A DNA stretch of 34,875 nucleotides from Saprospiraceae bacterium (GTDB lineage: Bacteria > Bacteroidota > Bacteroidia > Chitinophagales > Saprospiraceae). Positions 3,157 to 34,847 of this stretch are shown in pieces. How positions within the stretch are numbered: position 1 is the first letter of the stretch; each line of letters begins with the position of its first letter. A program made the position numbers and the translations under genes. Location: the NCBI GenBank assembly GCA_027011385.1, contig JALVAD010000148.1:1-34875 (forward strand). Direction: 5' to 3'. Below the pieces are notes generated by a model, which had not been told where the DNA came from, did no database searches, and was given only the letters and a program-made list of their open reading frames with translations.

Positions 3157-3203
3157 ATGTGTATCAGACCCCATCCCCTGTAGTGATTGCCTTTTAAACT
3201 TAT

Positions 3204-3273: not shown

Positions 3274-3287
3274 CCAGTTGCAGATTA

Positions 3288-3326
3288 GAACCCATCCCCG
3301 ACCCTTCCATTAGCAAGGGAAGGGGG
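3288..3326 (+). repeat. GC-rich hairpin module, family H3 (gaacccatcccc leader plus cccttcc/ggaaggg stem)
   Basis: gaacccatccccgacccttccattagcaagggaaggggg. The same leader and stem recur at 8631, at 11465 (split by the MITE) and inside both MITE copies. Confidence 0.75.
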
Positions 3327-8581: not shown

Positions 8582-8630
8582 CACTTATTTATTAAATAAA
8601 AAATCTAGTTCGCACAATTAATTAAATCAG

Positions 8631-8747
8631 AACCTATCCCCGACCTTTCTTTTTCAATAAGCGAGGTCAGAGACACTCGCTTATCAGTAGAATTACAGAA
8701 GAAATGCGGGTTGTGGTTTTCCCGATTTCGGAATGCAATGGAGAAAC
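8631..8747 (+). repeat. Mosaic of palindromic modules: H3 leader (8631-8649), H1 (8657-8686), H2 (8701-8747)
   Basis: H1 is ataagcgag gtcagagaca ctcgcttat (9-bp stem). H2 is gaaatgcgggttgtggttttcccgatttcggaatgcaatggagaaac. The same H1-H2 pair recurs at 11282-11374, and as H2-H1 at 25805-25893. Confidence 0.8.
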
Positions 8748-8822
8748 GGGGAGTTAGAGGGCAGTTGTGCCAGAAAAAAAAGATAATGAGGAGTATCGCC
8801 AAGGATTGAGTTAGATAAACAG

Positions 8823-8892
8823 GCAACTCTTTATAAATCAATAACATTCCTTAGTACTACGTAGTGGCATCCTTAGCGTCCTCAGCGGGAAA
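8823..8892 (+). repeat. 70-bp interspersed repeat, family H5, copy b
   Basis: gcaactctttataaatcaataa ... atccttagcgtcctcagcgggaaa. The ends are identical to 3204-3273 and the centre is diverged. Confidence 0.8.
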
Positions 8893-8946
8893 TTAAGCAG
8901 CTTATTTGGTTTAAAATACTGGAAATCTTAGAAAAAGCATGGTTTA

Positions 8947-11188: not shown

Positions 11189-11281
11189 TATAAATATAAA
11201 ATGCTGCCTAAAATTACAATTATTTTCTGTTTTTTTTCAATTATCCTGTGTATCAGCACCGGAGTAGTACATTTTTGTAAG

Positions 11282-11374
11282 AAGCGAGGTCAGAGACACT
11301 CGCTTATCAAGCTAATTTTGAGGGAAATGCGGGTTATGGTTCTCTCTGTTTCGAAATCAGGGTTTTCGATTCCC
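11282..11374 (+). repeat. Mosaic of palindromic modules: H1 (11282-11309) and H2 (11324-11374)
   Basis: aagcgaggtcagagacactcgcttatca is identical to the 8659-8686 core. It is followed by gaaatgcgggttatggttctctctgtttcgaaat. Confidence 0.8.
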
Positions 11375-11496
11375 TTTACTACTACCATTTTGAACTCACA
11401 CTAATAAACCAAGAAAACAATTCCATCTGACAAAACCACTAAGTTTTTGATAATTTACATAAGAGAACCCATCCCCAAACCTTCCCTTTGTGAGGG

Positions 11497-11824
11497 CTTA
11501 CGTTATGACACATCTTTTAGCAAATATTTTTATTTAGAACCCACCTCAATCCTCCCTTACAAGGGAGGAAGCTGCAACCCCCTGTGAAATACTTCGTTGA
11601 TTTCACAGGGTAAACCGCAATAGCAACGCTTTTTTCACAAAAAAAATACCATTTAGTTATAAAACAAGATGATTCTCAAATAGCTATTTTTATTAATCAA
11701 GCACCTCCACTTCTCCCTTCCCTTTGTGAGGGAAGGGTTGGGGATGGGTGCTAAAACCGGAATCAAATCTCTCAAGAGAAAGCTATCGTTATCACACTTA
11801 TTAAAAGATGTGTCATAACGAAAG
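11497..11824 (+). mobile_element. MITE-like non-autonomous element, copy L (328 bp)
   Basis: Termini are cttacgttatgacacatctttta and taaaagatgtgtcataacgaaag; 22 of the 24 terminal positions are inverse-complementary. An identical 12-mer cctttgtgaggg abuts both ends (11485-11496 and 11825-11836). Removing the element restores an H3 hairpin. No credible ORF inside. The interior is about 97% identical, in inverted orientation, to 26023-26316. Confidence 0.75.
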
Positions 11825-12222
11825 CCTTTGTGAGGGAAGGGGCGTACCTGCTCTTAATCTGCAATATTTTCTCAGGCTTTTGCTTCTACGAGCCAAAGTT
11901 AGCTTTTTGGTTTTACTTTAACAAAGTCTCGAAGTACAGGCAAAGAAAAAATCAAATTTTTGTTAAAAATACAACTCTTTCTGTATTTCACCACAATGAT
12001 GAAAAAACGATGAAAAATTTTTTATTTTTTTTTCAATACCAATAAATGTATTTAATATTAGATTCCAAATCAAAACAGATTATATAAAAACATCATATCA
12101 CAACACATTAAAAATAAAGATAATATCAATATTTTTTTGGTATGTTTATTGAAAATATTGAAGTAATGAAAGAAGAATCATGGTGTATTGCCGTGATATA
12201 ATCTTATTATTAAAACAATAAT

Positions 12223-15200
12223 ATGAAATTAAATTTTAAGCTGATGAGAGAACCATTACAAGATGCTAAAAAGAGGTTATCCGGGGTTTACAAAAAACCT
12301 TTTATGACCGTTTTTGCCATTATTATTATGGCATTTAATTTGTCTGCCCAAGCTCCTAGCGGATCCGTGGTAGAAGATTGCACTTGCCTGAGCAATCAAA
12401 CACATTGTGGAGATGGACAGTATTCTACACTGCTGAGAATCGTGAACGGAGGACTTAACAATACTTGGTATGTCGCCGAAGATTCGATTCAAGGACTGTA
12501 TGATATCAATAGTCCTGCACCTCCGACACCACCGACTGAATTTGTAACCGGACCGGCAGGTGTAACAATGACAGATATGGGAGGCGAGACCTATGAGTTA
12601 ACTGCTATCCATGTTGATAGCCTCGGCTATTGGGTGAATTTAACTGACGGCACGGATACTGTCAAGCTGCTTGTTTCCCCTGGAACTTGCAAATACCCCC
12701 GGACTAAGATAGTCGGGGATCCTTTCGTTTGTGAAGGTCAAGTTTCTGACTATTCAACTGCTAATAATGCCACAAGCAATTATCTATGGACATTGAATAA
12801 TGATGGAACTCATGGTGGAACGATGACCTCTGCCAATACTGCCAATCCAATAACCATAGAATGGGATGATGATTCTGATGGCAAGTATCATCAAGTCAAA
12901 GTTCAAGAGACCGATGCAAATGGATGTGTAGTATCAGATTCAATGTTAGTTCAAATTGAGGATACCATAACCATGGCTTGTACACATGATGTACAAATAT
13001 CTTTGGATGCCAATTGTGCAGGAGCATTAACTGCTGACATGTTTCTAGAAGGTCAGGTCTATAATGATAGTTCTTATGCGATAATAATCCAAGATTCTAA
13101 TGGTAATCTTGTGAAGCAAGACACTTTAAGCAAAGATATGGTTAATAAGGTATACACAATTACCGTACAACATTTGTGCAGTGGCAATATGTGTTGGTCT
13201 TATATGCTTGTTCTTGACAAATCAGCACCGGATTTGAATTGTCATACAGATACAATAAAATGTTCAGATAGTGTAAAACCAGAAGATTTGGTTGATGGAT
13301 TCCCTCTATTGTACTATACTAATATACAAAAAACATCAAATCCTTTTAAATATATTGCAACAGGGACAAGCGGTTGTAGTGATGCGACTTTGGTATATAA
13401 TGATAAAGTTACTGAAGAGCCTTGTTCTTCTCCTTTCACTTCTACAATAATAAGAAAATGGAGAGTTAATGATGCTTCATTAAACTCAAGTGTTTGTATA
13501 GACACTATCAGAGTTGAAAGAACAGGATTGGCAGATATAAACTATCCTAAAAATTGGGATGGATTACCTTTTAACAATCCTTTCATTCAAGCTTGTAGCA
13601 AATATCCTACTGATGCAAATGGAAATCCTGATCCGAGCAAAACAGGTTCTCCCTCAGGTCCATTCTGTGGTAATCTGATGGTAAACTACTCAGATAAGAG
13701 GCTTTATTTATGTGACGATATTGGAGGCGAATCATATAAAGTCCTAAGAAATTGGACTGTAATGGATATGTGTACAGGAGATGCATTTGATACTCTTCAA
13801 ATCATTGCAATAATGGATACTCGTAAACCAACAATTTTAATACCCGGGCTTACAGGAGGCAATACATTTGTTGTAAACACTGAATATTATAACTGTGGTG
13901 CCAATGTCGAATTACCTGTAGCAACTGTTAGAGATTGTAGTATTGACAATCCACATGATTATACTGTTAGTTATCAACTAGCGGATGACGATGGGAATTA
14001 TCCTGACCCAACATTTCCATATACGACATTACATAAGGTAGGTGGAAAGTTTATATTACCAAATATTCCATATGGTTTTGCCAAAGTAAAATATACAGCT
14101 ACAGATCCTTGCGGCAATACAAAGGAAAGAATAATCTATGTAAAAGTGATAGATAACTTGCCTCCTCAAGCCGTTTGTGACAAGCATACAACTGTTACAT
14201 TAAGCGATTTGGGCATTGCATATTTAAGCAAATATTCATTTGATGACGGTTCATTTGACAATTGTTCTGATGTCACATTAGATGTAAGAAGAATGTCAGG
14301 AGTATGTGACCCATCCGATTTAATTTATGGTGAAGGGGTACATTTTTGTTGTATTGATTCAGGTCAAGACTCTGTTGGAGTAGAACTAAGAGTTACGGAT
14401 AGTAAGGGGTTTACAAATAGCTGTATGGCATGGGTTATAGTTAGTGATAATCAAAAACCGACAATTACTTGTCCTTCTAATGGTGAAGTAAGCTGTAAGT
14501 TTGATTACTCAGATTTATCAGTTTTCGGAACGATTAGAAATGACGAAAGTTTAGTTGAAAAAATATACATAAACGATCCTGAGCACGGTGGAAATCATCA
14601 TTACTTTGGCAAGGATGGATTTGCTACCGACAATTGTGATGTAACTGCCAAGATGATTTCAAAAACAGTATCAATCAATAATTGTGGAACTGGTGTTATA
14701 AGAAGAGTATTCCAAGCAACAGATAGTTATGGAAATAAATCAAATACTTGTACTCAGACTATTCAGGTAATAGATTTCAAGCCTTTTAATGCTAATAATC
14801 CGGCAGACTTAAGATGGCCTAATGATTATACATTCACCGGGTGTCTAGGAGAGAATATACTCCCTGACAATTTACCTGATGCTTATGGTTGGCCAAAAAT
14901 ACTGGGAGATGATAAATGCAGTACAATTGCAATGGACTATGACGACCTGATTTTTGAGCATGTAGAAGGAACTTGTTACAAGATAATAAGAACATGGAGA
15001 GTTGTAGATTGGTGCGTTTATGAACAAAACAAACCCGGAACACCATTGGGATATTGGGAACATGTACAAACTATAATGGTAACAGATGACACCAACCCAA
15101 CTGTGGAATCCGGATGTACTCCTGTTGACATTACTGCTTTGGGTAACTGTGATTATAGATACCACTTCAAAGCAATAGGTGATGATAACTGTACAGCCCC

Positions 15201-16971
15201 CAATCAACTAAGATGGTCATACAAAGTAAATATCAATAATTCTCCAACTGACATTGTTGAGGGGAATACAGATGAATTCAATATAGTATTATCAAAAGGT
15301 ACTCATAAGATTACTTGGTATGTTGAAGACAATTGTGGAAATATTGGTCAATGTTCAAAAACATTTACCGTAAAGGACGAAAAAGCACCAACTCCACAAT
15401 GTATAGACGGACTTGTCACTGTTGTTCTGCCTGAAAGTGGTAAAATAACTATACATGCTGCCGACTTTAACAGACACAGTACCGATGATTGTACAAGAAG
15501 CAATTACGGATCATGTGGATGTTTGACTGATTTGACATTCTCATTTTCCGACGACAGGTCTGAAAAAGACTTGGAATTATCTTGTGCTGATATTGAGAAT
15601 GGCATCATAGACACTATCCCATTGACAATTTGGGTTTGGGACGAATCACACAATGGTGATTTCTGTAACACATTTATAGTATTGCAAGACAATAATGATG
15701 CATGTGAAGATGTAGTACCACTACATGATACCATATTCTATAATTTGACTGGAATTGTCCAAAAACCAAATGAGTCTCCGGTAGAAGACATCAAAGTAGT
15801 ATTGACAAATGAGGACACTGAATTCAGCAGTGAAATGAATACAAATGCAAACGGTGAATATGTCTTTGAGCATTTGGCTGACAACTCAAATTATAAACTT
15901 GCTGCTAATAGAAATGGAGATTATTTGAATGGAGTTTCAACATTAGATATTGTTTTATTGCAAAAACATTTGCTCGGAATAAAGAAATTCAAAAATCCAT
16001 ATGATTATATCGCAGCTGATGTAAACGATTCAAAGAGCATTACTGCTTCTGATATTTTGGAAATAAGGAAACTGATTTTAGGTAGATTTAATAAATTCTC
16101 AAAGTCCAACTCTTGGAAATTTATTGATAAGGATATGCAATTTGAAAATAGTCAAAAACCATTTGATTTTAATGAAATAGTGGATTTAGGATCTTCAACA
16201 GTTGATATAAACAAAAACTTGCTTGCAATAAAGGTAGGTGATATAAATCAATCTGCATTGACCGGTGACGAAATAGCTTCCAGAAGTGCTAATACAATCG
16301 CTTTGGAAACAGATAATATATCTTTTGAGCAAGGAGATCAATTGGAAATCAAATTTGCGCCTAAAACTGCAATCGCGACAGTTGGATCACAATTCACTAT
16401 TGAGTTTAATTCTGACAAATTGAGGTTTAACGGTATTGAAAGTGATTATTTCAAAATTAGTGATGAGAATATCAACCAATCCAAATCTAAAGAAGGTTTA
16501 ATAATGATATCTATCAATGAATCAATAGCAAAAGTGATAGAAAAAGGAAAAGACATATTCACTTTCAATTTTACTGCAAAAGAAAATGGGGTATTGGACA
16601 ACTCAATAAAAATAAGTTCAAAAATCACCAAAGCTGAAATTTACACACTTGAAGATAAAGAATTGACGGAAAACAATATCAAATTAGAGTTTAGAAATTC
16701 TGATAACTATACATTCAAGGTATTCCAGAATATTCCAAATCCATTTAGTTCAAAAACTGTAATAGGATTTGAGATTCCTGGCGAAGAAACTGTTTCATTA
16801 GAAGTGTATGATATGACAGGAAAAGTATTATATCAAGTCGAAAAAGATTACGACAAAGGATATAATGAAATAAAACTGACAAATGATAATCTTAATGTTA
16901 CAGGGCTTTTGTATTACAAACTAGAAGCAGGAGAATATTCAGCAATTAGAAAAATGATTTTAATAAAATAG
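12223..16971 (+). CDS. Giant T9SS-sorted surface protein (1582 aa): PKD-like and HYR-like repeats, CarboxypepD_reg-like, dockerin-like, cohesin-like modules and a Por/T9SS C-terminal sorting domain
   Basis: Signal peptide KKPFMTVFAIIIMAFNLSAQA. Repeated HYR-like signatures (VKYTATDPCGNTKERIIYVKVIDNLPP, ITWYVEDNCGNIGQCSKTFTVKDEKAP, RTWRVVDWC). Dockerin-type Ca loops GDYLNGVSTLDIVLLQKHLLG and DVNDSKSITASDILEIRKLILG (nt about 15916-16083). Cohesin-like block at nt about 16291-16695. CTD FQNIPNPFSSKTVIGFEIP...YYKLEAGEYSAIRKMILIK (nt about 16714-16968). The true start may be an internal Met (12244 or 12304). Confidence 0.85.
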   Translation: MKLNFKLMREPLQDAKKRLSGVYKKPFMTVFAIIIMAFNLSAQAPSGSVVEDCTCLSNQTHCGDGQYSTLLRIVNGGLNNTWYVAEDSIQGLYDINSPAPPTPPTEFVTGPAGVTMTDMGGETYELTAIHVDSLGYWVNLTDGTDTVKLLVSPGTCKYPRTKIVGDPFVCEGQVSDYSTANNATSNYLWTLNNDGTHGGTMTSANTANPITIEWDDDSDGKYHQVKVQETDANGCVVSDSMLVQIEDTITMACTHDVQISLDANCAGALTADMFLEGQVYNDSSYAIIIQDSNGNLVKQDTLSKDMVNKVYTITVQHLCSGNMCWSYMLVLDKSAPDLNCHTDTIKCSDSVKPEDLVDGFPLLYYTNIQKTSNPFKYIATGTSGCSDATLVYNDKVTEEPCSSPFTSTIIRKWRVNDASLNSSVCIDTIRVERTGLADINYPKNWDGLPFNNPFIQACSKYPTDANGNPDPSKTGSPSGPFCGNLMVNYSDKRLYLCDDIGGESYKVLRNWTVMDMCTGDAFDTLQIIAIMDTRKPTILIPGLTGGNTFVVNTEYYNCGANVELPVATVRDCSIDNPHDYTVSYQLADDDGNYPDPTFPYTTLHKVGGKFILPNIPYGFAKVKYTATDPCGNTKERIIYVKVIDNLPPQAVCDKHTTVTLSDLGIAYLSKYSFDDGSFDNCSDVTLDVRRMSGVCDPSDLIYGEGVHFCCIDSGQDSVGVELRVTDSKGFTNSCMAWVIVSDNQKPTITCPSNGEVSCKFDYSDLSVFGTIRNDESLVEKIYINDPEHGGNHHYFGKDGFATDNCDVTAKMISKTVSINNCGTGVIRRVFQATDSYGNKSNTCTQTIQVIDFKPFNANNPADLRWPNDYTFTGCLGENILPDNLPDAYGWPKILGDDKCSTIAMDYDDLIFEHVEGTCYKIIRTWRVVDWCVYEQNKPGTPLGYWEHVQTIMVTDDTNPTVESGCTPVDITALGNCDYRYHFKAIGDDNCTAPNQLRWSYKVNINNSPTDIVEGNTDEFNIVLSKGTHKITWYVEDNCGNIGQCSKTFTVKDEKAPTPQCIDGLVTVVLPESGKITIHAADFNRHSTDDCTRSNYGSCGCLTDLTFSFSDDRSEKDLELSCADIENGIIDTIPLTIWVWDESHNGDFCNTFIVLQDNNDACEDVVPLHDTIFYNLTGIVQKPNESPVEDIKVVLTNEDTEFSSEMNTNANGEYVFEHLADNSNYKLAANRNGDYLNGVSTLDIVLLQKHLLGIKKFKNPYDYIAADVNDSKSITASDILEIRKLILGRFNKFSKSNSWKFIDKDMQFENSQKPFDFNEIVDLGSSTVDINKNLLAIKVGDINQSALTGDEIASRSANTIALETDNISFEQGDQLEIKFAPKTAIATVGSQFTIEFNSDKLRFNGIESDYFKISDENINQSKSKEGLIMISINESIAKVIEKGKDIFTFNFTAKENGVLDNSIKISSKITKAEIYTLEDKELTENNIKLEFRNSDNYTFKVFQNIPNPFSSKTVIGFEIPGEETVSLEVYDMTGKVLYQVEKDYDKGYNEIKLTNDNLNVTGLLYYKLEAGEYSAIRKMILIK

Positions 16972-17055
16972 AACCGATTTATAAGGAGTGTTAATCTATT
17001 AAAGGGTTAATGCTCCTAAAATCCCAATCTATTAAAATAAATAAAATTATAAAAA

Positions 17056-20000
17056 ATGAAAAATTATTTACAAATTAAAAGCAAAGTGTTCAAATCTGCA
17101 CTTACTTTAATAGCATTCTTACTGTTTGCAATATCAATGCAAGCTCAGTGTGATGCAAAAATCACGGATGCTGATCATGACGGCAAAGATTATGTTTGTG
17201 CAGAATCAACTACATACTATCAAGCAGTACGATCAGCAGCTACCGGTAGTACCATTTCTTGGACTCTATGTGGTGGTGGAACAATACTATCTACTAATGA
17301 TGACAATATTCTTTCAAGTGTTTCCATTCAATGGGACAGCTTACCGGGAACTGGACCATACTGCATTAAAATGACAGAAACAAATGGGGCCTGCTCCAAT
17401 ACGGAAATACTAGATGTTTATATTGAACAAAACAATTTAGTAATGGCGTGTAATCGATTAGTTCTTGTAGCTTTGGACAATAACTGCAGGGACACAATAG
17501 GTGCAGATCAAATAATAGAAGCTCCATTGTATCCGGATGAAAGTTACGATGTCAATGTATTCAACACTGACAATTCGATAAGACCGGAACCGATAGTAAC
17601 ACTTCAAGATTTAGGAGATACCTTAATGGTTGTTGTTACACACGAATGCTCCGGCTTGTCCTGTATGGGTAGAATTGCATTCCAAGATAATCTTGCTACG
17701 ATGCTTTCATGTAGAGCAGATACAATCAAGCTGGAATGCGATGAATCAACTGACCCTGAGAATACACATGTTGGATTTCCGCTTGTAGCCGGTTCAACAG
17801 TCCATAAGGTTGACCAAAGAAGATATCAAGCTACCATTCCGGGAGATTGTGGTGGACAATTTACCTTGGTATTTTCAGATGAAGTACTAGACCAAACTTG
17901 TGGATTAAATGACTATCAATTTATAATACATAGGACATGGACTGCAATCGATGCATCAGGTAATGGTTGGTCCTGTACCGAAATTATTGCTCAAAAATGG
18001 GGTGATTTTGATACAATGACATTGCCTAATAATTATGATGGGATGAACGGAAATTTATTTTTTCAATGTAACGATAATCATCCAAATGCCAATGAATCTA
18101 TTTATTGGTCTTATAAAGATTCAATTCCTACACCTGCGATAACAGGCTATCCTCAATATGCTTCATGTAGTAATATACAGTTTTTATACGAAGATTTGAC
18201 TATTCCGGGTTGTGGATACAATAGAAAAGTACTCAGACATTGGACTATTTTAGACTGGTGTACAGGAAGACAAAAGCAATATGACCAAGTATTAGCATTT
18301 GTAGATGATACCCCTCCGATTATGGCATTGAGAACAGATACTCTTGAATTTGATGCAACCATAGGTAAGTGCTCCGGTAATGCATATCCATTACCTGATC
18401 CTTTAGTATTGGAAGATTGTTCCGATGTGACGGTTGAAGTTATAGGATACAAATTGTGTTCACAAGCTTTTGATAGTACAGATGGCATATACAAAAAATC
18501 AGGAAAATATGGAATCAAAGATTTACCGGTAGATTCCGTAATCTGTGTGAGATACAAAGCTACTGACGAATGTGGATTGTGGAGTGTTGCAAACATGAGA
18601 GTAGTAATTCGAGACAGACAAAAACCAACAGCTGCATGCGACGCTCATACAGTAGTGACAGTAGGTGTTAATGCAAAACTTTACGCAACTGCTCTTGACA
18701 ATCACAGCTGGGACAATTGTGGAATCAGCAAATTAGAGATTAAAAGGACATCCAATAAATGCGGTAATTATCAAGATTTGATATATGGTGAATCTGTAGA
18801 TATGTGTTGCGCTGATGTTGGTACGGATGTAGTAGTTAAATTAAAGGTTTATGATATTCATGGATTAACAAGTGAATGTACGGGAATAGTTCATGTTCAG
18901 GATAAAGAAAGACCTGTATTGACTTATTGCCCACCAAACTTCACCGTTGATTGTGAGCAAAATTACAGCAATTATTTCCCTGGAGGAAAACCAACAGCTA
19001 CCGATAATTGTACTATACTACCCCCTACTAAAACAGATAAAGCTAATCTAAATGATTGTGGTTTTGGAACTGTAAGAAGGACTTGGGTATTGAAAGATAA
19101 AGCAGGATTGGAGACCCTTCACAAATGTGTTCAAATCATTACAGTTGAAGACAAACATCCATTGACTGATTCTGATATCAATTGGCCTACAAACAAAACA
19201 CTTTATGGATGTTGGCCCGGAGTTGATTACAGTGAATCTGTGACAGGTATTCCAACAATAAATAATACAACTTGCAAGCAACTTGGCATTGCACATACAG
19301 ATAAAATAATACATAACCCTGCTACTTCAGATGCATGTGTAGTAATAGAAAGAACATTCACTGTAGGTGATTGGTGTAACACTAATGCTGCTTATATAAC
19401 ACATTTGCAATACATCTATATTCAAGATGGTGGTGCACCATATTTCACATATTGTAAGCATGATACGACGATATCAAGTGGAACTGCCTGTTCAGTAAAT
19501 ACCACAATAAGAGCAGAAGCAGAAGATGATTGTACTCCTGCTGATGATTTGGTATATACTTACAAAGTTGACTTGGACGATGACGGAACTATTGATTTCA
19601 CCGGAAACGGAAACGTAATAAACAGGACATTTGATAGCGGCAGGCATAAAATTGTATTTACTGTAACTGATGGTTGTGACAATACTGCGACTTGCACAAG
19701 ATACATAAGAATCAAAGACACCAAGCCCCCTACTCCATTGTGCTTAAGAAAAATCACAACAACACTTGGAATAGACGGAACTACTACAGTAGATGCTAAA
19801 ATATTTAACCACGGAAGTATCGATAATTGTACTCCTAGCAACTATGGAACATGCGGTTGTGGAACAGATTTAAGATTTTCTTTCTCTCAAAATGTGAATG
19901 ACAAAACCAGGACTTATACCTGTGATAGTTTGGACAATGGAGTTGGAAAGAAATTTGATTTGGATGTATGGGTAACTGACTTAGATGGAAACAAAGATTT

Positions 20001-21303
20001 TTGTAAAGTTATTCTCAATATTATGGATAGTCAAGATGTCTGTCCTGATGCTCCAAATCCTACAGTAGTAGTAAAAGGAACTATTGTAGATGCCAATTTG
20101 AATGGAATAGAAGGATTTAAGGTAAGTGGTATGACTTTGGATCAAGTGGTAGAAGATGCCGCTGAAACCAATGTAGATGGACAATACTATTTGGATGGTC
20201 TTGGAGCATACAAAAAGTATAAAGTTGCACCTAGCAAGACTGACAATGTCTTGGATGGAGTCACTACATTAGATATAGTATATATCCAAAAACACTTACT
20301 AGGTATAAACAAATTCGATGATCCATATAGTTATATAGCAGCAGATGCTAATGAATCCAAATCAGTCTCAGCAAGTGATATATTACAACTAAGAAAATTG
20401 ATTTTAGGAGTAACTACTGAATTACCGGGAAAGAAATCTTGGAAATTTATTCAGGCTAAAACTGAATTCAACAATCCTTCACATCCATGGGATTATGATG
20501 ACAAGTATATTACAGATAGCTTATTCTTTGAACAAGACAGTTTGGATTTCATTGCGGTAAAACTTGGAGACATAAATCACTCTGCTCAAGGATACAATTC
20601 AAGTTCTGTTCTAGAGAATAGATCCGAGGATAAATACTTTGAAACAGAAAATATATCTTTCAATAATTCCGATATTGTACCTGTTGTTTTCAAGGCAGAA
20701 GAAAGTGATTTAATCTCAGGATTCCAATTTACCTTGGAATACGACAGTAATAATTTAGAGTTTTTGAGTATTGAAGATGGAAAAATAGTATTGCAACAGA
20801 ATAATTACCATATTGTGAATAACAAAAATGGAATCATCACTTTCAGTTGGAATAGTTCAGACGCCTTAAATTTAGAGGAAATGAACAAATTATTTACGAT
20901 CAACTTCAAAGCTAAATCAGAAGGATTATTGAGTGATAATTTAAAAATATCATCAAAAATAACAAGTGCAGAGTTATATTCAGACAATTTGGAAGTTTCA
21001 AATCTAAATTTGAGATTTGATGGTAATAGTATTAAGAGCAATGAGATTGTCATTAATCAAAATATTCCAAATCCATTTTCAAATACAACAGAAGTTATAA
21101 TAAACTTACCTGAAGAAACCGATTTAGAATTTAGGATTTTGGATTCGACAGGAAGAATAATTAAGAGCACACACAGGCATTACTCAAAAGGACAAAACTC
21201 AATCTCAATTTTAAGTGCAGAACTTGGAAAACCAGGATTGTACTTCTATGAAATAACAACAGAAAAATCTTCAACCATCAAAAGAATGGTCTATATAAAA
21301 TAA
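17056..21303 (+). CDS. Giant T9SS-sorted surface protein (1415 aa), collinear paralog of the upstream gene
   Basis: Signal peptide ALTLIAFLLFAISMQAQ. Same module order as the upstream gene. IVFTVTDGCDNTATCTRYIRIKDTKPP (HYR-like). Dockerin-like GVTTLDIVYIQKHLLG and DANESKSVSASDILQLRKLILG (nt about 20251-20409). Cohesin-like block. CTD NQNIPNPFSNTTEVIINLP...YFYEITTEKSSTIKRMVYIK. Confidence 0.85.
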   Translation: MKNYLQIKSKVFKSALTLIAFLLFAISMQAQCDAKITDADHDGKDYVCAESTTYYQAVRSAATGSTISWTLCGGGTILSTNDDNILSSVSIQWDSLPGTGPYCIKMTETNGACSNTEILDVYIEQNNLVMACNRLVLVALDNNCRDTIGADQIIEAPLYPDESYDVNVFNTDNSIRPEPIVTLQDLGDTLMVVVTHECSGLSCMGRIAFQDNLATMLSCRADTIKLECDESTDPENTHVGFPLVAGSTVHKVDQRRYQATIPGDCGGQFTLVFSDEVLDQTCGLNDYQFIIHRTWTAIDASGNGWSCTEIIAQKWGDFDTMTLPNNYDGMNGNLFFQCNDNHPNANESIYWSYKDSIPTPAITGYPQYASCSNIQFLYEDLTIPGCGYNRKVLRHWTILDWCTGRQKQYDQVLAFVDDTPPIMALRTDTLEFDATIGKCSGNAYPLPDPLVLEDCSDVTVEVIGYKLCSQAFDSTDGIYKKSGKYGIKDLPVDSVICVRYKATDECGLWSVANMRVVIRDRQKPTAACDAHTVVTVGVNAKLYATALDNHSWDNCGISKLEIKRTSNKCGNYQDLIYGESVDMCCADVGTDVVVKLKVYDIHGLTSECTGIVHVQDKERPVLTYCPPNFTVDCEQNYSNYFPGGKPTATDNCTILPPTKTDKANLNDCGFGTVRRTWVLKDKAGLETLHKCVQIITVEDKHPLTDSDINWPTNKTLYGCWPGVDYSESVTGIPTINNTTCKQLGIAHTDKIIHNPATSDACVVIERTFTVGDWCNTNAAYITHLQYIYIQDGGAPYFTYCKHDTTISSGTACSVNTTIRAEAEDDCTPADDLVYTYKVDLDDDGTIDFTGNGNVINRTFDSGRHKIVFTVTDGCDNTATCTRYIRIKDTKPPTPLCLRKITTTLGIDGTTTVDAKIFNHGSIDNCTPSNYGTCGCGTDLRFSFSQNVNDKTRTYTCDSLDNGVGKKFDLDVWVTDLDGNKDFCKVILNIMDSQDVCPDAPNPTVVVKGTIVDANLNGIEGFKVSGMTLDQVVEDAAETNVDGQYYLDGLGAYKKYKVAPSKTDNVLDGVTTLDIVYIQKHLLGINKFDDPYSYIAADANESKSVSASDILQLRKLILGVTTELPGKKSWKFIQAKTEFNNPSHPWDYDDKYITDSLFFEQDSLDFIAVKLGDINHSAQGYNSSSVLENRSEDKYFETENISFNNSDIVPVVFKAEESDLISGFQFTLEYDSNNLEFLSIEDGKIVLQQNNYHIVNNKNGIITFSWNSSDALNLEEMNKLFTINFKAKSEGLLSDNLKISSKITSAELYSDNLEVSNLNLRFDGNSIKSNEIVINQNIPNPFSNTTEVIINLPEETDLEFRILDSTGRIIKSTHRHYSKGQNSISILSAELGKPGLYFYEITTEKSSTIKRMVYIK

Positions 21304-25787: not shown

Positions 25788-25804
25788 GCGACTTCTTGGA
25801 CTGA

Positions 25805-25893
25805 GAATTGTAGGTTGGGGTTCTCCCGGTTTCGGAATAAAATGGAGAAACAGAGCTTGATATAAAAGCGAAGTCAGAGATATTCGCTTATCA
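25805..25893 (+). repeat. Mosaic of palindromic modules: H2 (25805-25851) then H1 (25866-25893)
   Basis: gaattgtaggttggggttctcccggtttcggaataaaatggagaaac, then aagcgaagtcagagatattcgcttatca. The module order is reversed relative to the 8.6 kb and 11.3 kb loci but the strand is the same. Confidence 0.8.
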
Positions 25894-26022
25894 GGGATAC
25901 AAAAAAAGCTTCACATGGAGATTGTTATATTTCCGATTTTGAAAGATACTGAATATCGAACACTGAATAAGGATTGGAGATTTTAGAAGGTTTGCAATGA
26001 GATTAGGAAACCTTTTGCGGGG
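25866..26022 (+). repeat. About 125-bp direct repeat unit (H1 + gggatac + 90-bp AT-rich segment), copy 1, carrying a 32-bp internal insertion (25901-25932)
   Basis: 25933-26022 and 26613-26702 differ at 2 positions in my manual alignment (ccgattttgaaagatactgaatatcgaacactgaataaggattggagattttagaaggtttgcaatgagattagga...). Confidence 0.85.
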
Positions 26023-26503
26023 CTTACGTTATGACACATCTTTTAATAAGTGTAATAACGATAGCTTTCTCTTGAGAGATTTGATTCCGGTTTTAGCACC
26101 CATCCCCAGCTCTTCCCTCACAAAGGGAAGGGAGAAGTGGAGGTGCTTGATTAATAAAAATAGCTATTTGAGAATCATCTTGTTTTATAACTAAATGGTA
26201 TTTTTTTTTGAAAAAAGCGTTGCTATTGCGGTTTACCCTGTGAAATCAACGAAGTATTTCACTGGGGGTTGCAGCTTCCTCCCTTGTAAGGGAGGATTGA
26301 GGTGGGTTCTAAATAAAAAATCATGCAAATATTATTACACAAATATGGAGTTTTAACGTATTTCACTTTATTTGTACCAAATATCTAACTTGTGTAGTTG
26401 CTATATATGTACAAAAACAGACAACTTTTGACCAAAATATAAATATAGCTTCCGTTATGATAAATCTTATTTTTTTTTGCTTTAAGATGTGTCATAACGA
26501 AAG
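26023..26503 (-). mobile_element. MITE-like non-autonomous element, copy R (481 bp), inverted relative to copy L
   Basis: Same termini (cttacgttatgacacatctttt ... aagatgtgtcataacgaaag). An identical 11-mer cttttgcgggg abuts both ends (26012-26022 and 26504-26514). 26023-26316 is the reverse complement of 11532-11824, with about 7-8 differences by eye. It carries about 155 bp more AT-rich sequence (about 26317-26475) than copy L. Confidence 0.75.
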
Positions 26504-26514
26504 CTTTTGCGGGG

Positions 26515-26737
26515 ATAGAGAGACATTCGCTTATCAGGAGAGTGTAAACGAAATCATAGACCTTTTGCAGGGAGATAAAGCGAAGTCAGCGATATTCGCT
26601 TATCAGGGATACCCGATTTTGAAAGATACTGAATATCGAACACTGAATAAGGATTGGAGATTTTAGAAGGTTTGCAATGAGATTAGGAGACCTTTTGCAG
26701 GGAGAAGGAAAGCGAAGTCAGAGACATTCGCTTATCA
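26515..26737 (+). repeat. Three further H1 palindromic units (26515-26536 5'-truncated, 26578-26605, 26710-26737), including copy 2 of the 125-bp unit (26578-26702)
   Basis: The core aagcgaagtcag[a/c]ga[c/t]attcgcttatca is repeated. Each unit is preceded by accttttgcaggga. Confidence 0.85.
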
Positions 26738-26845
26738 AGGACAAAGAATCGAAGATTTTAATTTTATCTACTAATAGTGTTTAAAAAAAACTTTATTGAA
26801 ACTAATACGTTAAAATCTTACACCACATAATAAATATATCACTAA

Positions 26846-29355: not shown

Positions 29356-31011
29356 CTATAATCCTAAATTAAAGCCAAAAGAAAATGTGTGATTTTTCCC
29401 TTGGTAAAAGTCAGGTGTAAAAAGCTTCACATCTGCTCCGCTTGCATTATTGAATTGATAAGTAAGTCGCAAATGGCTATTAAATGCAAATTCATAGGAG
29501 GCATTTAAAGAAATTACTTCATTAGTCCATCTAACTTCCTGCATAAATGGGTAAGTGACTGCAATATTCCCATTTATATATTCATAAGATCTACCATGAC
29601 GAGCCTTGGTGTATTCTCCTTTAATCAATAATCTCGCTAAAGGTTTATATGCAATGGAAAAATAAAGCTCATCTGAATTTGATCTTAAGTAATGGCCTAT
29701 ATTATAATCATTACTTTGGAAGGTAGTAGTGCTGATATAGTGTTCATAAACTATAGGTCTAGTATGAGTGAACTCTGCAATTACGAATAGATTCTGTAGG
29801 AAACCATTTGAATTTTTTACACCGACTTTGTATCCGATTGGATTGTATTTGCCTTTCTCTTTTATTCTACCTATTTTTAATTCATCAAAAAATACCGTAG
29901 TGTATAGATTAAAATGCTTTAATCTTTTAATACTTAAATTTAGGAACATTTGTGAATTTTGTCCAACCGCTACTCCTGCTTTATCGGTAGAATTGAGCCA
30001 ATGATCAACAGATTTAAAAAACATAAAAGGAATCATATATCCGGGATTGGGACTCATATCCGAATAGATAATGGAATTACCAAATGAGAAATATACTTTT
30101 TCAAAAGGTATGAAGCTAAACATATTTGCCGCTATATATTTAGGACGCATAACATCACGTCTATTTCCATTAGCAGTAGTAAATGATCTTGATGAATCGA
30201 TCACATTGGATACAAGCCATCCGTGCATATAATTAAAATCAAACCATTTCGCAGGCTTTAGATGCAATTTCAATTGAGCATAAGAAGGAGCTTTAGATGA
30301 CAAAATATTAGCTCCGTGATAATTAGTCCCCCACTCTACATGATCTTTAACCATACTAATACTTCCCCAATTCCAAGAATAGCCAATACCACCCCTCATC
30401 TCACTAAAATCACCACCTCCGCTCTTACTTCCCTTAAAATTCCCTCCTCTCTCAAGAGTCAAGTACTCTTTACGGTTAAATAATTCGGTCAGATTATTAT
30501 CTCTAAGGCTTGCCCATCCGGATAGATGCATACCTATGCTCATCTTTAATGATCCTCCACCCCATCTATGATAGTTATTCCTCTTAGCATTATTATAATA
30601 GTTCATACCCCAAATAGGTCTCAATTCAAGATAAAATAAAGAGTCTCTGTATCGATAACCCGGAGGTAATAAAGTCAGATTGTATTTGCTCATTAATTTG
30701 CCAATAACAGGTATTTTTACTTCTGATTCATGTAAAGAAGTCGAAAAATAAGAATATTCGCTAAGATAAAATTCCAATTCTTTCAGTTGTCTTGAATTTA
30801 ATGATCCCGTTTGGCGTTTTGCCTTTTTTAAACTCAAATAGATATCCTTATCTGAATATGGTTTTACTACATCATTCAAATCAATAATCCCTGATAATGA
30901 CAATTCGTCCATAAATTCATATATCCCCGTGCTGGAAATATGTTCAGGTATTTCCTGAGAAAATACTTTTAAATTTATTAAGAATAGTGTTATTAGTATT
31001 TTATATTTCAT
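29356..31011 (-). CDS. wzi: Outer-membrane beta-barrel protein, probably capsule-assembly Wzi family
   Basis: Signal peptide MKYKILITLFLINLKVFSQ. The N-terminal helical motif IYEFMDELSLSGIIDL..VKPYSDKDIYLSL resembles the Wzi N-terminus. The rest is long aromatic-rich beta-strand sequence ending in FSFGFNLGL. Located near a Wzc-like gene. Confidence 0.55.
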   Translation of the reverse strand: MKYKILITLFLINLKVFSQEIPEHISSTGIYEFMDELSLSGIIDLNDVVKPYSDKDIYLSLKKAKRQTGSLNSRQLKELEFYLSEYSYFSTSLHESEVKIPVIGKLMSKYNLTLLPPGYRYRDSLFYLELRPIWGMNYYNNAKRNNYHRWGGGSLKMSIGMHLSGWASLRDNNLTELFNRKEYLTLERGGNFKGSKSGGGDFSEMRGGIGYSWNWGSISMVKDHVEWGTNYHGANILSSKAPSYAQLKLHLKPAKWFDFNYMHGWLVSNVIDSSRSFTTANGNRRDVMRPKYIAANMFSFIPFEKVYFSFGNSIIYSDMSPNPGYMIPFMFFKSVDHWLNSTDKAGVAVGQNSQMFLNLSIKRLKHFNLYTTVFFDELKIGRIKEKGKYNPIGYKVGVKNSNGFLQNLFVIAEFTHTRPIVYEHYISTTTFQSNDYNIGHYLRSNSDELYFSIAYKPLARLLIKGEYTKARHGRSYEYINGNIAVTYPFMQEVRWTNEVISLNASYEFAFNSHLRLTYQFNNASGADVKLFTPDFYQGKNHTFSFGFNLGL

Positions 31012-31140
31012 ATTTTTTATTTATATTTCACTTACAAGTGTTTGTAACGTAGTCTGGTGTTGAGCGGCTATACTGTCATAAACAAAATTTAATTTCTTAT
31101 GCAAAAAAAGTAAAAATGAGTTTTTTTTATTTAAACCAAC

Positions 31141-31172
31141 TTTCGTTTTTTGTCTTGATACAAAAAACGAAA
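31141..31172. other. Perfect 13-bp-stem hairpin (tttcgttttttgt / acaaaaaacgaaa, 6-nt loop)
   Basis: Seen directly. The stem is AT-rich and has no U-tract on the minus (transcribed) strand, so it is not a canonical terminator. Confidence 0.5.
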
Positions 31173-31342
31173 CAAAAAAAATCAAGGCTGTATTCTTTTT
31201 TTAACGCTCCAAAATCACTCAAAATTCTAAACGTCTTAAAACTCACCCGACTTCGTCAGGGCTTAAACAATAATCCGTTTTTAACGAATTTTGACCGATT
31301 TTTCCACTAAAAAGAATAATGCCAATTTAACTACTACCAAAT

Positions 31343-31597
31343 TTAAAATAGCTGCGATCTTGATTCTCCAATACTTGCTTTTGCAATGCTAAGAAACTGG
31401 ATAAACTCTCTATTTCCGCCCCTTTCATAGCCCTCTGCAATATTATCCATAGTACTTCCCGATGATCCATTAATCTGATCTTTCAAACGAAAATCTTTAG
31501 CTAACTCAGTCTCTTTTATTAAAAGGTAAATATCTTGACAGAACGCTCTGGCTAATTGCCAAGCCTCAATATCTTCAAATGTAACCCATGTTGCCAT
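31343..31597 (-). pseudogene. Four-helix-bundle protein (23S rRNA intervening-sequence protein family), C-terminally truncated (84 aa)
   Basis: FEDIEAWQLARAF, STMDNIAEGYERGGNREFIQFLSIAKASIGESRSQL match helices 1-3 of the family. Family members are about 115-125 aa, and here the frame stops just after the start of helix 4. Confidence 0.65.
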
Positions 31598-31610: not shown

Positions 31611-31889
31611 TATGTGGTTTCAGTTTTTATTTGTTTCAGGTTTCAGGTTTTATTTGTTCCATGTTCCAATTTTTTTTGTTTCAGGTTTCAGGTTTTTTTG
31701 AACTTTGAACATTGAACTTTGAACCTTGAACATTGAACCTTTGAACCTTGAACCTTGAACCTTGAACATGAAACATTGAACTTTGAACATTGAACTTTGA
31801 ACCTTGAACCTTGAACCTTGAACATGAAACATTGAACCTTGAACCTTGAACATGAAACATTGAACATAGAACATGAAACATTGAACCTT
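31611..31889. repeat. Bipartite heptanucleotide microsatellite: T-rich GTTTCAG tract (31611-31699) plus 27 tandem GAACNTT units (31700-31889)
   Basis: I parsed the units by hand (GAACCTT, GAACATT, GAACTTT, GAACATG-AAACATT), with one 8-mer. There is a higher-order repeat of 78 and 56 bp. The last unit overlaps the HAD stop codon (31888-31890). Confidence 0.9.
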
Positions 31890-32304
31890 ATTTCCCAAAC
31901 AATTTACCGATTACTCCTTTTTTCTTTTGAAACATCTTCTGAACCGTCTCAACATCCTCACCATTTAAAATCTGATATATCCTACCCCATCCTATGAAAC
32001 CACCTATATTTCGATCATCTATAAAAATATCTGCTTTAAGTTTTCTTGGCACATCCGGAGTATAATCTTCTTCAACAAAATTTTTATTTACAGCATAAAA
32101 CTCAATTCCGTTTTTCTTACAAAACTCAACTGCTTCATCTAGTCTTTTACCCTTTCTATATGTCCATAAAACAAGTCTATGTCCATCCTCTTGCATCTTT
32201 TTCATAGTTTCAAATGCAAATATTAGCGGTTTACCAATATCAGGATATTTATCCTCTACTATAGTACCATCAAAGTCTATTGCTATAAGTTTACTACTGT
32301 TCAT
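31888..32304 (-). CDS. Small HAD-superfamily phosphatase-like protein
   Basis: IAIDFDGTIV (DxDGT motif I), VLWTYR (motif II-like), IFIDDRN (motif IV). 138 aa. Confidence 0.65.
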   Translation of the reverse strand: MNSSKLIAIDFDGTIVEDKYPDIGKPLIFAFETMKKMQEDGHRLVLWTYRKGKRLDEAVEFCKKNGIEFYAVNKNFVEEDYTPDVPRKLKADIFIDDRNIGGFIGWGRIYQILNGEDVETVQKMFQKKKGVIGKLFGK

Positions 32305-32465
32305 TTATTTCTTATCTGTGTTCTTTTGTTTCATTTTGTTTGTTTCAGGTTATTTTGTTTCAAGTTAATTTGTTTCAGGTTTTAAGTTTAAATTGAACAT
32401 GGAACTTTGAACCTTGAACATGAAACATAAAACCTTATACATGGAACATGAGACCTTAAACATTA
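32305..32465. repeat. Second bipartite heptamer element: GTTTCA(G/A) tract (32305-32394) plus about 10 degenerate GAACNTT units (32395-32464)
   Basis: Same two-part layout and orientation as 31611-31889. The last unit overlaps the Wzc stop codon (32463-32465). Confidence 0.85.
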
Positions 32466-34847
32466 AAAGAATCGCCACCAAGGTTTCTTCTTCTCCTGTC
32501 CATAGCCATAACCATATCCGTAGCCATATCCGTAGCCGTAGCCATAGCCTTTCTTGATATCGGATCCATTCAATAGTATTCCCATATTCGGTAATCTATT
32601 TTCTTTATAAAGAGAGTCCGGAACATTCAGCATACGCTTATCTAAGTATCCTGCTTTAGTAACAAATATGGTCATATCTGCGTATTCGCTTAGCAACAAG
32701 GTATCAGTAACCATTCCTGTCGGGGCAGTGTCAACAATGATATAATCATAAAATGGTTTTAGCTCATCAAACAGTTGTTTTACACTACTACGCATAAGGA
32801 TCTCTGATGGATTGGGGGGGATATCACCTGAAGGCAACACATGCATATTTGGTATTTCTTTCAATTTAATTATAGCTTGATTAATATCATAATCAGTATC
32901 GATCAAATAATTTGTAACCCCTTTGTCTCCTTCAATTCCTAAATATTGTATAACTTTAGGTACTCTTAAGTCCATTCCTATCAACAGAACCTTTTTACCG
33001 GAAATCGCCAGCGATGCGGCAAGGTTAATAGCTACAAATGTTTTTCCTTCCTTATTAATCGTGGAAGTAACTAAGATAGTTTTTGCTTTATCGTGCTCTC
33101 CTTTTAGCATAAAGCCAATATTAGTTCTTAGCAGTCTAAAAGCCTCTGACACATTCGTGTTTTTCTCTAATGCTACTAAATACTTGTTCTCTTTTACCTC
33201 CGGTATAGAACCAAGAAACGGTACTGCAATTTTTTCCAAATCCTTTTTAGTATGCACTTTTACATCCAATAAATCCTTTAAATAAAGAAGAAGTATTGGA
33301 AATAACAGTCCAAGTAGCAAGCCAATGATATATATAATTTTCTTCTTGGGACTTATGGGCAACCCGGAATCATACGCAGGATCTAATATCTTGGAATTTG
33401 ATACTGTTACTGCTTTAGCGATAGCTGTTTCCTCTCTTTTCTGTAATAAGTACAAGTAGAGATTTTCTATAATTTTTCTTCTCCTTTCTATTACAAGAAA
33501 TCTTCTCTCTTGTTTTGGAATGGCTTTGATACGGGATTTGAAACGATTGGCATCCTTCTCAAGATCTGCTATATTTATTTCAATAGAGTTTTTAATATTA
33601 TCCAAACTTTGCTTCAAGCTCTCTCGCATATTGACAATTTGCTCCTCAAAATTAAGAAATACAGGACTTTTCTTCGTAGATGACTTAAGGACTCTATTTC
33701 TTTGCAACACGAGTTTGTTATAGCTATTAATCGAAGATTCAACAGAAGAATAGGTGATTCCTAGATTAGCAGGAATCAAACTTGAATTATCCTTTTGGTT
33801 TTTTAAATAATCAATGATATATTCAACAAGATTCAATTGAGTATTGAGTTCACTCAATTTTTTTGTGGACTCCGCCATATTATTTAGAAAAATATTCGAT
33901 TCGGAAGCTAAATCTGTTAGACTATTTGAACTCTTAAAATGCTCAACATTACCATCCAATTTATCCAATTCTTCTTTGATTAATACTAATCTATCATTTA
34001 TAAAATCAAGAGTATTTTTTGATACTTTATTTTTATCTTCTATTGCATCCATTTTATGTTCCGCTAACAGGGTATTTAATATATCCACTGCTCTCTTTCT
34101 ATTGGAATCCTTTATACTCAGATTTAACACTTTTGATAACTGACTAGCCCTTTCAATATTAATTCTGGATTTCAGGCTATTCACAACAGACTCTACCGGC
34201 TTAATAACAATTTTTATTTCTTTGTTAATAAAACCACTTATTTTTTTATTTGGTACAAACACTACATCCCCGAATGACAGCTTTACTCTTTCTCCAAAAC
34301 CAGCATGCAAAAATACTGAATCTGTCTTTGTCATCAAGTCAAATGAAGATTCAGAAACAATCTTCATTTTAAAAACAGTATCAACTCTATCAAATAATGA
34401 ATCACCTATAAAATAATCCATTTTTACCGGTGAGTCTATGTACATATCTTCTTCTCTTAATTTCAGATATTTCCTTAGTGTACCCAAATTTTTATAAGAT
34501 ATATTAATTTTTAGATCTTTGACTACCCTAGTTAACAAAATAGAAGATTTCAATATATAAATATGATTTTCAGAGTTGTCTCCAAGTTTTGGTATTACTC
34601 CCAAATCTTGAAAAGCCGAAACTTCTGTTCCCATACCATCGGCATCTTGAACTTTTATCAATACAGATGCATTTACTTGATAAATAGGTGTAGTATACCT
34701 TAAGTACATAAAAGTTCCTATCAGAAAAACTATCAAACTTAGCACAAACCATGGCCAATATCTCAAGTATTTTTCGATTAACTCTCTTATATTTATCTCT
34801 TCCTCCATACTCTCTTCCAGAGGATTTTTACCAATCTCAAATTCCAT
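32463..34847 (-). CDS. wzc: Polysaccharide co-polymerase / BY-kinase (Wzc/GumC type) with a C-terminal (GY)n tyrosine cluster
   Basis: N-terminal Wzz-like domain with TM helix WPWFVLSLIVFLIGTFMYL and a coiled-coil periplasmic region, then a second TM. Walker A VTSTINKEGKT, Walker A'/B (IIVDTAP), and the tail GYGYGYGYGYGYGYGYG. Confidence 0.85.
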   Translation of the reverse strand: MEFEIGKNPLEESMEEEINIRELIEKYLRYWPWFVLSLIVFLIGTFMYLRYTTPIYQVNASVLIKVQDADGMGTEVSAFQDLGVIPKLGDNSENHIYILKSSILLTRVVKDLKINISYKNLGTLRKYLKLREEDMYIDSPVKMDYFIGDSLFDRVDTVFKMKIVSESSFDLMTKTDSVFLHAGFGERVKLSFGDVVFVPNKKISGFINKEIKIVIKPVESVVNSLKSRINIERASQLSKVLNLSIKDSNRKRAVDILNTLLAEHKMDAIEDKNKVSKNTLDFINDRLVLIKEELDKLDGNVEHFKSSNSLTDLASESNIFLNNMAESTKKLSELNTQLNLVEYIIDYLKNQKDNSSLIPANLGITYSSVESSINSYNKLVLQRNRVLKSSTKKSPVFLNFEEQIVNMRESLKQSLDNIKNSIEINIADLEKDANRFKSRIKAIPKQERRFLVIERRRKIIENLYLYLLQKREETAIAKAVTVSNSKILDPAYDSGLPISPKKKIIYIIGLLLGLLFPILLLYLKDLLDVKVHTKKDLEKIAVPFLGSIPEVKENKYLVALEKNTNVSEAFRLLRTNIGFMLKGEHDKAKTILVTSTINKEGKTFVAINLAASLAISGKKVLLIGMDLRVPKVIQYLGIEGDKGVTNYLIDTDYDINQAIIKLKEIPNMHVLPSGDIPPNPSEILMRSSVKQLFDELKPFYDYIIVDTAPTGMVTDTLLLSEYADMTIFVTKAGYLDKRMLNVPDSLYKENRLPNMGILLNGSDIKKGYGYGYGYGYGYGYGYGQEKKKPWWRFF

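Follow-up and report, generated by a model that had tools for sequence, protein, structure and literature searches.

Gaps between co-directional genes in a capsule operon of a Saprospiraceae bacterium were found to be filled by arrays of short tandem units followed by partly complementary tracts, and arms of this kind bracket many genes of the four-helix-bundle family (4HB; S23p, PF05635) elsewhere: complementary upstream and downstream flanks (score ≥15) were detected for 62% of 73 such genes, as opposed to only 4% of 327 control ORFs. On balance, the arms in the analyzed stretch of DNA (34,875 nt, referred to here as the window) may best be interpreted as a repeat-built hairpin element residing in an operon gap, which would be transcribed, prone to slippage and, by analogy with known systems, processed by RNase III as an imperfect hairpin.

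In Bacteroidota and Cyanobacteria, proteins of the PF05635 family rank with the more common small proteins that await an explanation. Heptamer arrays in intergenic DNA have long been noted as a curiosity, one for which we know of no accepted role. A hairpin cassette would tie both to the intervening sequences (IVS) of rRNA genes and to the leader of the hmw genes, the sole heptamer hairpin of known mechanism, in which RNase III is involved. This link allows direct tests in cultured bacteria. It would also explain a practical nuisance, as assemblies are interrupted at such arrays and false ORFs arise from them in capsule and housekeeping loci.

Organization of the Array and Its Partner Tract

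The genes and repeats of the locus are located on the minus strand. The upstream operon gene wzc (32463–34847) encodes a Wzc-type tyrosine autokinase according to Pfam and NCBIfam and is followed by the gene of a BT0820-family HAD phosphatase (31888–32304; NCBIfam NF046079, 191.5 bits vs. a cut-off of 165), whose best named homologues are found in Flavobacteriaceae (65–72% identity). Downstream are a truncated 4HB gene (31343–31597; 84 aa; Pfam E-value 3.9e-23; TIGR02436), a dispersed repeat of about 205 bp (31140–31346), recognized from contig word depth and fold, and the gene of a 551-aa secreted protein (29356–31011), which in relatives lies directly after the HAD gene at a distance of 10–13 nt. 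The window represents chromosomal DNA of Bacteroidota; proteins encoded in it carry type IX secretion sorting tails, and DNA near-identical to the window is present in hydrothermal-vent metagenomes.

The left arm in the HAD|551-aa gap, Lb, occupies positions 31698–31889 of the minus strand and consists of 27 tandem units, which read GTTCAAN/GTTTCAT on the transcribed strand. TRF reported a single array over this interval (period 7, 27.3 copies, 82% matches, 1% indels, score 200), and the two-unit pattern GAACNTTGAACNTT (at most one mismatch) yielded 22 matches in the window vs. 0.28 expected from shuffles, in agreement with the original prediction of 27 heptamers fused to a GTTTCAG tract. The self-match of Lb amounts to 0.81 at lag 7 and to 0.07–0.42 at the remaining lags from 1 to 13. 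The periodicity, which had been described as strict with three unit variants, is near-strict, and the number of variants is larger: split into units, the array contains nine copies of GAACCTT and a tenth adjoining the stop codon, four of GAACTTT, three of GAACATT, four GAACAT|GAAACATT pairs, one GAACATA and one unit of 8 nt, GAACCTTT. A proposed higher-order repeat of 78 and 56 bp was recovered in part, as a 32-nt block is repeated at an offset of 78 and blocks at an offset of 56 are 89% alike, but autocorrelation of Lb, inspected for such a super-repeat, revealed no peak exceeding the multiples-of-7 baseline.

As predicted, the array starts at the HAD stop codon, with the terminal Lb unit (31883–31889) sharing 2 nt with this codon (31888–31890). 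The right arm, Rb (31616–31697, minus strand), is composed of paired CCTGAAAC and TGGAAC units with A-rich spacers between them and a super-period of about 22–23 nt. The GTTTCAG tract extends over 31616–31700 with a period of about 23 (TRF: 23 × 3.8), and the distance between its end and the 4HB start codon at 31597 was measured as 19 nt. Stop-free false ORFs traverse the Lb array, as had been foreseen for an array of this type.

A second, degenerate bipartite array (32320–32462), which the original prediction did not include, fills the wzc|HAD gap in the same order and orientation as Lb/Rb and begins at the wzc stop codon. Its left arm, La (32393–32462, minus strand; family D1), comprises about 10 degenerate GTTNNNN units directly after this codon (TRF period 7, 10.9 copies), and its right arm, Ra (32320–32392, minus strand; family D2), contains YTGAAAC units with A-rich spacers and ends 15 nt before the HAD start codon (TRF period 15, 4.2 copies). 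In both pairs, Lb/Rb and La/Ra, tandem GTT… units are followed by …AAC-type units on the same strand. One low-depth contig of run X1 joins position 31643 to 32350, thereby omitting HAD and the 27-unit array and fusing both right-arm tracts, which suggests a rare deletion through recombination between two direct copies. Within wzc, a CCATAG hexamer repeat (32499–32549) corresponds to the (Gly-Tyr)n tail of the kinase; it is slippage-prone, lies 35 nt from the heptamer array, and variant contigs join inside it.

Turnover of Gap Sequences in Related Genomes

Orthologous loci were reached through HAD homologues, and the wza-wzc-HAD-551aa synteny is common to L001, L213, and L214. In L214/L215 (HAD identity 72%), the wzc|HAD and HAD|551aa gaps measure 20 nt and 10 nt, respectively. 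In L211 (81%), 12 nt separate HAD from the 551-aa gene, and the upstream gap amounts to 27 nt, the upstream gene being cut at the contig end and unnamed. Neither repeats nor 4HB genes are present at these loci. L213/L212 (78%) exhibit a HAD|551aa gap of 13 nt and a wzc|HAD gap of 520/611 nt, which contains (GTTACGAAG)n followed by (CTTCGTAAC)n without an ORF. In this gap (L213 2480–3000; L212 2389–3000), about 40–50 GTTACGAAG units of 9–10 nt precede about 10 complementary units, and the gap is 91 nt longer in the L212 assembly than in that of L213. In L209/L210 (94–95%), the wzc|HAD gap of 192 nt carries a different, ORF-less GTT…/…AAC element, and the HAD|551aa gap measures 543 nt; the locus has the 205-bp repeat but no 4HB gene, and in L209 this repeat is joined to another left flank; the corresponding gaps of the window measure 158 nt and 876 nt.

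The gaps of these orthologous loci lead to the conclusion that HAD is native, that both of its gaps were invaded and that gap content is quickly exchanged. HAD itself is ruled out as cassette cargo, and the suggested mobile-cassette boundary around it is not supported, since relatives have HAD between wzc and the 551-aa gene without repeats, at distances of 10–27 nt. Between the window and L209, coding DNA is 86–89% identical, as opposed to 62.5% for the gap. In comparison with strain L001, HAD is 99.0% identical and the array region 84%, with indels of 7 nt and 22 nt, which bears out the expectation of slippage-type length variation. Three of five near-identical contigs terminate inside the array. 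In the vent metagenomes, array words reach 5–40 times the flank depth and continue into other sequences, indicating similar arrays at other loci.

Lb shares with long heptanucleotide simple sequence repeats (SSRs) a length beyond chance, an intergenic position, and length polymorphism. Intergenic heptanucleotide arrays have been described in Bacteroidetes, where contigs end in such arrays (PMC4679880), and, according to Mrazek (2007), as cited in PMC4679880, no class of long SSRs is more common in bacteria than heptamers. The arrays might be viewed as neutral microsatellites, i.e., functionless products of replication slippage in slack intergenic DNA, with arm complementarity maintained by template switching between neighboring inverted repeats (quasi-palindrome correction). 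Rapid turnover between close relatives, assemblies that break at the array, adjacent arrays that intergrade by single-base unit changes, and a lack of strand bias in G-U-type mismatches (see below) would all fit this explanation. It is nevertheless considered unlikely, as the complementarity of an arm is specific to its own partner, cassettes are kept at one site across genera with both arms changed, the tie to one gene family is strong, a GTT-then-AAC order predominates, and gaps are filled exactly from stop to start codon. The window arrays resemble long SSRs, the cyanobacterial STRR and the TAACTGA repeats of Beggiatoaceae in being intergenic tandem heptamers with mixed units and strain-specific indels in 7-nt steps, but those arrays are described as direct repeats without a paired inverted arm or a link to PF05635 (PMC4679880).

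The 4HB gene of the window covers profile positions 1–76 of 106 and misses about 45 C-terminal residues compared with 130-aa homologues. It breaks off at 31346, at the border of the 205-bp repeat, whose first bases provide the premature stop codon, and strain L001 as well as one X4 contig carry a further 63-bp internal deletion. Being truncated by the repeat and further deleted in these sequences, the gene is regarded as decaying; as it is broken, the window locus has no active partner, and no further 4HB gene was found elsewhere in the window. A distal arm able to pair with the 27-unit array was probably lost to the 205-bp repeat. This repeat exhibits a word depth of 500–2200x vs. 15–36x in its flanks, folds well (z −4.2) and shows a weak full-length match to Rfam RF02998 IS605-orfB-II (23.4 bits, below gathering); no tnpB was detected near it in the window. 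A TATTTCA-type repeat is located across the start codon of the 551-aa gene (30997–31030), where the 95% relative L209 has three copies of GAAATATAAATGAAAAACATAT (3895–3975).

Interpreted as hairpin elements of operon gaps, such insertions would be composed of a left arm of GTTNNNN units and a right arm of NNNNAAC units between co-directional genes, spanning the interval from the upstream stop codon to just before the next start codon, very often with a PF05635 gene between or beside the arms. Two of them would have invaded the originally tight wza-wzc-HAD-551aa capsule operon, the wzc|HAD gap taking an ORF-less element and the HAD|551aa gap a 4HB-bearing one. The 205-bp dispersed repeat would later have destroyed the 4HB gene and the distal arm in the latter gap.

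Four-Helix-Bundle Genes Between Complementary Arms

The association introduced above was obtained from 80 metagenome loci that were picked solely by 4HB protein similarity, using a 3-sequence alignment as query (a 7-sequence alignment proved too diverse). With flanks of 200 nt, 57 of 76 4HB genes exhibit arms scoring ≥15. The lag-7 self-match of the flanks is 18/28, compared with about 13 at lags 5, 6, 8, and 9 and in controls. Where a period is clear, it is 7 in 25 flanks, 8 in eight, 9 in two, and 10 in one. Neighboring genes are mostly co-directional with the 4HB gene (56/68 upstream, 59/68 downstream).

Pairing is specific to the locus. Arms score a median of 20 with their own partner vs. 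9 across loci, and in 30 loci the own partner outranks every other member of a set of 73 candidates. Unit sequences vary between loci and covary within them, as exemplified by GTTTCAG/CTGAAAC, GTCCAAA/TTTGGAC, GATTTAAA/TTTAAATC, and GTTGCTG/CAGCAAC. In sufB|sufC cassettes of several genomes, pairing is kept despite changes in both arms, e.g., from GTTTAAA/TTTAAAC to ATTTAAR/YTTAAAT. Cultured examples are Riemerella anatipestifer, with the arrangement sufA|4HB|sufB (NZ_CP081938.1, around 100,260–100,900) and arms of GGTTYAA/CCTTRAA, and Nostoc sp. ATCC 53789, with arms of GGGAAAA/TTTTCCC. Flavobacterium columnare is a further cultured carrier, with the arrangement gmk|4HB|nadD. The Rb layout, with a tract upstream of the 4HB gene, recurs in L140, L141, L154, L158, and L160, and in several cassettes, as in the window, short, A-rich AAC-type units follow the left arm and precede the 4HB start codon. 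Two 4HB cassettes have a Flavo-1 RNA gene (RF01705) at a distance of no more than about 2 kb (L148 4338–4413 and L160 2735–2816), a proximity that is probably coincidental.

A scan of genomes for (GAACNTT)×4 identified at least 120 stretches in many phyla. Together with the wzc|HAD copy and the over-deep array words of the metagenomes, they confirm that the window array is not unique, as the original prediction had anticipated. Only 29% of GAACNTT arrays are located inside long ORFs vs. 82% of random segments, and they are often fused to other heptamer arrays, adjacent arrays passing into each other by single-base changes of the unit. One example is L015 (1–4000), where five GAACTTT arrays in 4 kb each adjoin (AGAAAAC)n within larger repeated units ending in GGAGTGCGCCCCTTTTCATGC. 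The anticipated co-occurrence of arrays and 4HB genes is strong when approached from the 4HB side but not from the side of the GAACNTT unit: among the matches listed, six 4HB genes were found in 4 of 120 8-kb blocks, and GAACNTT arrays therefore do not imply a 4HB gene. All six genes are flanked by heptamer arrays, and five of them are positioned between inverted arrays; for the sixth, the second copy in L015, the fetched block reaches the upstream (GTTTTCT)n array only. The flanking arrays are GTTCAAR/YTTGAAC in L114 and L071, GTTATGN/NCATAAC for the second L114 copy, GGTTTTC/GAAAACC in L015, and GAACATT/AATGTTC in L108. Their neighbors are unremarkable genes, e.g., ABC permease/ATPase, radC/rpmB, and serC/serA. 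ORF-less left-plus-right pairs are common as well, with a partner at a distance of 120 nt or less for 23 of 133 GAACNTT arrays, and the GTT-type then AAC-type order outnumbers the reverse by 32 to 4.

At the serC|serA site represented by L108 (437–870), three alleles were identified in rumen metatranscriptome contigs: a full cassette, a fusion of the two arms that lacks the ORF, and an empty site in which a spacer of 30–38 nt replaces 434 nt. In L108, the first heptamer provides the serC stop codon. Presence/absence alleles with clean borders, the ORF-less left-right allele, empty sites in relatives, and strand-symmetric mismatches are compatible with a cassette that moves at the DNA level, in which the arms would act as structure-specific sites for recombination or insertion (hairpin or cruciform, similar to attC) and would carry a 4HB gene, or nothing, into gaps. 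The position of GTT… upstream and …AAC downstream of the ORF recalls the 7-bp core sites of integrons, GTTRRRY/RYYYAAC, and can serve as a lead only. In an integron attC site, RYYYAAC precedes GTTRRRY within 57–141 bp, and an integrase is encoded nearby. The window elements are similar to attC sites and gene cassettes in having imperfect inverted repeats between ORFs of the same strand, in conserving structure over sequence and in their 7-bp GTT…/…AAC motifs, but adjacent arms are arranged in the reversed order (GTT-type, then AAC-type), the arms are tandem arrays and the units deviate from the core consensus. Identity with attC was rejected on the grounds of this order, the misfit of GTTCAAG/CTGAAAC with RRRY/RYYY and the lack of a recombinase among the larger ORFs of the 35-kb window that were scanned against Pfam, a scan that covered all but a few ORFs. 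Moreover, target-site duplications were not seen, and 4HB paralogues on one contig are only 15–60% identical, hence giving no sign of recent transposition. Movement as a DNA cassette is thus regarded as decidedly unlikely.

Pairing Potential and Comparison With Known Systems

Arms of the window consist of unlike unit types. Between GTTTCAG and CTTGAAC, 6 of 7 positions pair on the plus strand, including one G-U, and 5 of 7 on the minus, i.e., sense, strand. The duplex of Lb and Rb reaches z-scores of −1.8 (sense) and −2.6 (antisense), so that the earlier estimate of partial complementarity holds. La and Ra yield −2.1/−3.2 and La with Rb −3.9; the complementarity of Rb, which is partial with Lb, is thus greater with La. 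Cassette arms have medians of −2.45 and −2.9 vs. −0.24 for controls, and the window arms fall within the cassette range. A stable structure of the whole region was not recovered on the transcribed strand, where the fold (z −0.82) is no better than those of shuffled sequences; the antisense fold (z −2.27) is unconvincing alone.

Across cassettes, the two strands pair equally well. The sense strand shows the better pairing in only 33 of 75 cassettes, and G-U-compatible mismatches, counted in 57 cassettes, are not more common on the sense strand (91 vs. 111 on the antisense strand). Together with the unlike arms of the window, the equal pairing of the strands and the missing strand bias argue against a purely RNA-based reading and allow for DNA-level maintenance, i.e., template switching, or mobility; maintenance at the DNA level would give precisely such an absence of bias.

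Two known systems provide precedents for processing by RNase III. In the hmw leader of Haemophilus influenzae, an (ATCTTTC)n array and a partly complementary tract form a long imperfect hairpin that is cut by RNase III, and analyses of rnc and hairpin mutants revealed that cleavage is required for expression and for changes of the repeat number (PMC12721329). The window element matches this 5'-UTR in anatomy alone, i.e., in a heptamer array of variable repeat number that is accompanied, shortly before a gene, by a partly complementary tract and could form a long imperfect hairpin with it. It differs from hmw, whose function has been proven by mutants, in that the hmw system belongs to another phylum, uses another unit, lacks a 4HB gene, and has a right arm rich in G. 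In the Coxiella IVS, an S23p ORF is located in the loop of an intervening sequence of the 23S rRNA that is excised by RNase III, and two or three heptamers, variable between strains, are found upstream of the decaying ORF (PMC4990558). The window element resembles the 23S rRNA IVS of Coxiella burnetii and Leptospira in the presence of one protein family inside a stem of flanking complementary sequence within a host transcript, which for the window is presumed, in tandem heptamers of strain-variable number upstream of the ORF, and in ORF decay. Unlike these, it is located between protein-coding genes (wzc, HAD, and the 551-aa gene), and its arms are long tandem arrays; an actual 23S rRNA IVS (helix 25 or 45) was rejected, as the window contains no rRNA match.

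In a set of rumen RNA contigs, for which only contigs are available, a serC|4HB|serA cassette was found to be transcribed. These transcript contigs and the precedents of Coxiella and hmw are the reasons why a transcribed hairpin processed by RNase III is favored. In this model, the arms would be transcribed as part of the operon mRNA and fold into a long imperfect stem, which would be cut by RNase III; cleavage would enable the host to tolerate the insert and would set the expression of the downstream gene, while the A/C-rich right arm would also serve as the leader of the next gene. As the stem is built from tandem units, slippage could alter its length with pairing kept, resulting in fast evolution of the element. 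In addition to the pairing data above, the transcribed-strand fold of the whole region, the broken state of the 4HB gene in the window, and the small share of GAACNTT blocks that contain a 4HB gene weigh against this model.

The hmw precedent also raises the idea of a phase-variation dial, in which unit number would tune or switch the expression of HAD and downstream genes in the manner of the hmw 7-bp repeats. A location in a wza-wzc capsule operon and unit numbers that differ between strains would suit such a dial, which overlaps with the RNase III-processed hairpin and does not exclude it. The same elements are, however, present in housekeeping operons (suf, serC-serA, radC-rpmB, and ABC transporter), and a dedicated dial is viewed as extremely unlikely.

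Members of the 4HB family form a pentameric ring (2GSC; PMC4990558), and the relative Avd acts within a retroelement (PMC10053308). Combined with the tight linkage of gene and arrays, this could point to a protein-binding array, with the pentamer putatively binding the units as RNA or DNA and regulating or propagating its own cassette. Such a role appears very unlikely, given that ORF-less arrays are common, including in the window, and that units diverge widely while the proteins remain 50–77% identical. Somewhat less doubtful, yet still speculative, is a broader proposal in which PF05635 genes and complementary arms would represent one widespread class of self-propagating, IVS-like cassettes in operon and rRNA gaps of many phyla, an Avd-like pentamer acting on the arm hairpin, as RNA or via a copied intermediate, so that the cassette is spread or maintained.

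A literature search, with most subscription journals outside its reach, yielded, the Coxiella IVS apart, no report in which complementary repeat arms are linked to PF05635 genes of protein-coding operons. Both heptamer arrays and intervening sequences with an S23p ORF are already known; we could not find a description of a link between such arrays and 4HB genes in operon gaps.

Other Repeats and Genes of the Window

Neither the window nor the arms of 40 cassettes reached the gathering score of any Rfam family, rRNA was absent from the window and from the surroundings of these cassettes, and an E-value scan of the arrays returned chance matches of microRNA type only. A CRISPR array, which has repeats of 23–50 nt and unique spacers, was rejected for the window, as its 7-nt units are arranged head-to-tail without spacers.

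Further short-repeat families are located in intergenic regions at 3185–3320, 8620–8900, 11273–11830, and 25800–26750, and these families look like miniature transposable elements. The regions 11527–11826 and 26021–26319 contain inverted copies of 196 nt and 119 nt that are 96–98% alike, and a 25-nt terminal inverted repeat, GGCTTACGTTATGACACATCTTTTA, likewise belongs to these families. Upstream of a gene for an AsnC-family regulator, an 84-bp unit is repeated 2.2 times with 98% identity (2195–2383). Two very large secreted proteins of 1582 aa and 1415 aa, which carry dockerin and cohesin domains and type IX secretion tails, are encoded at 12223–21303.
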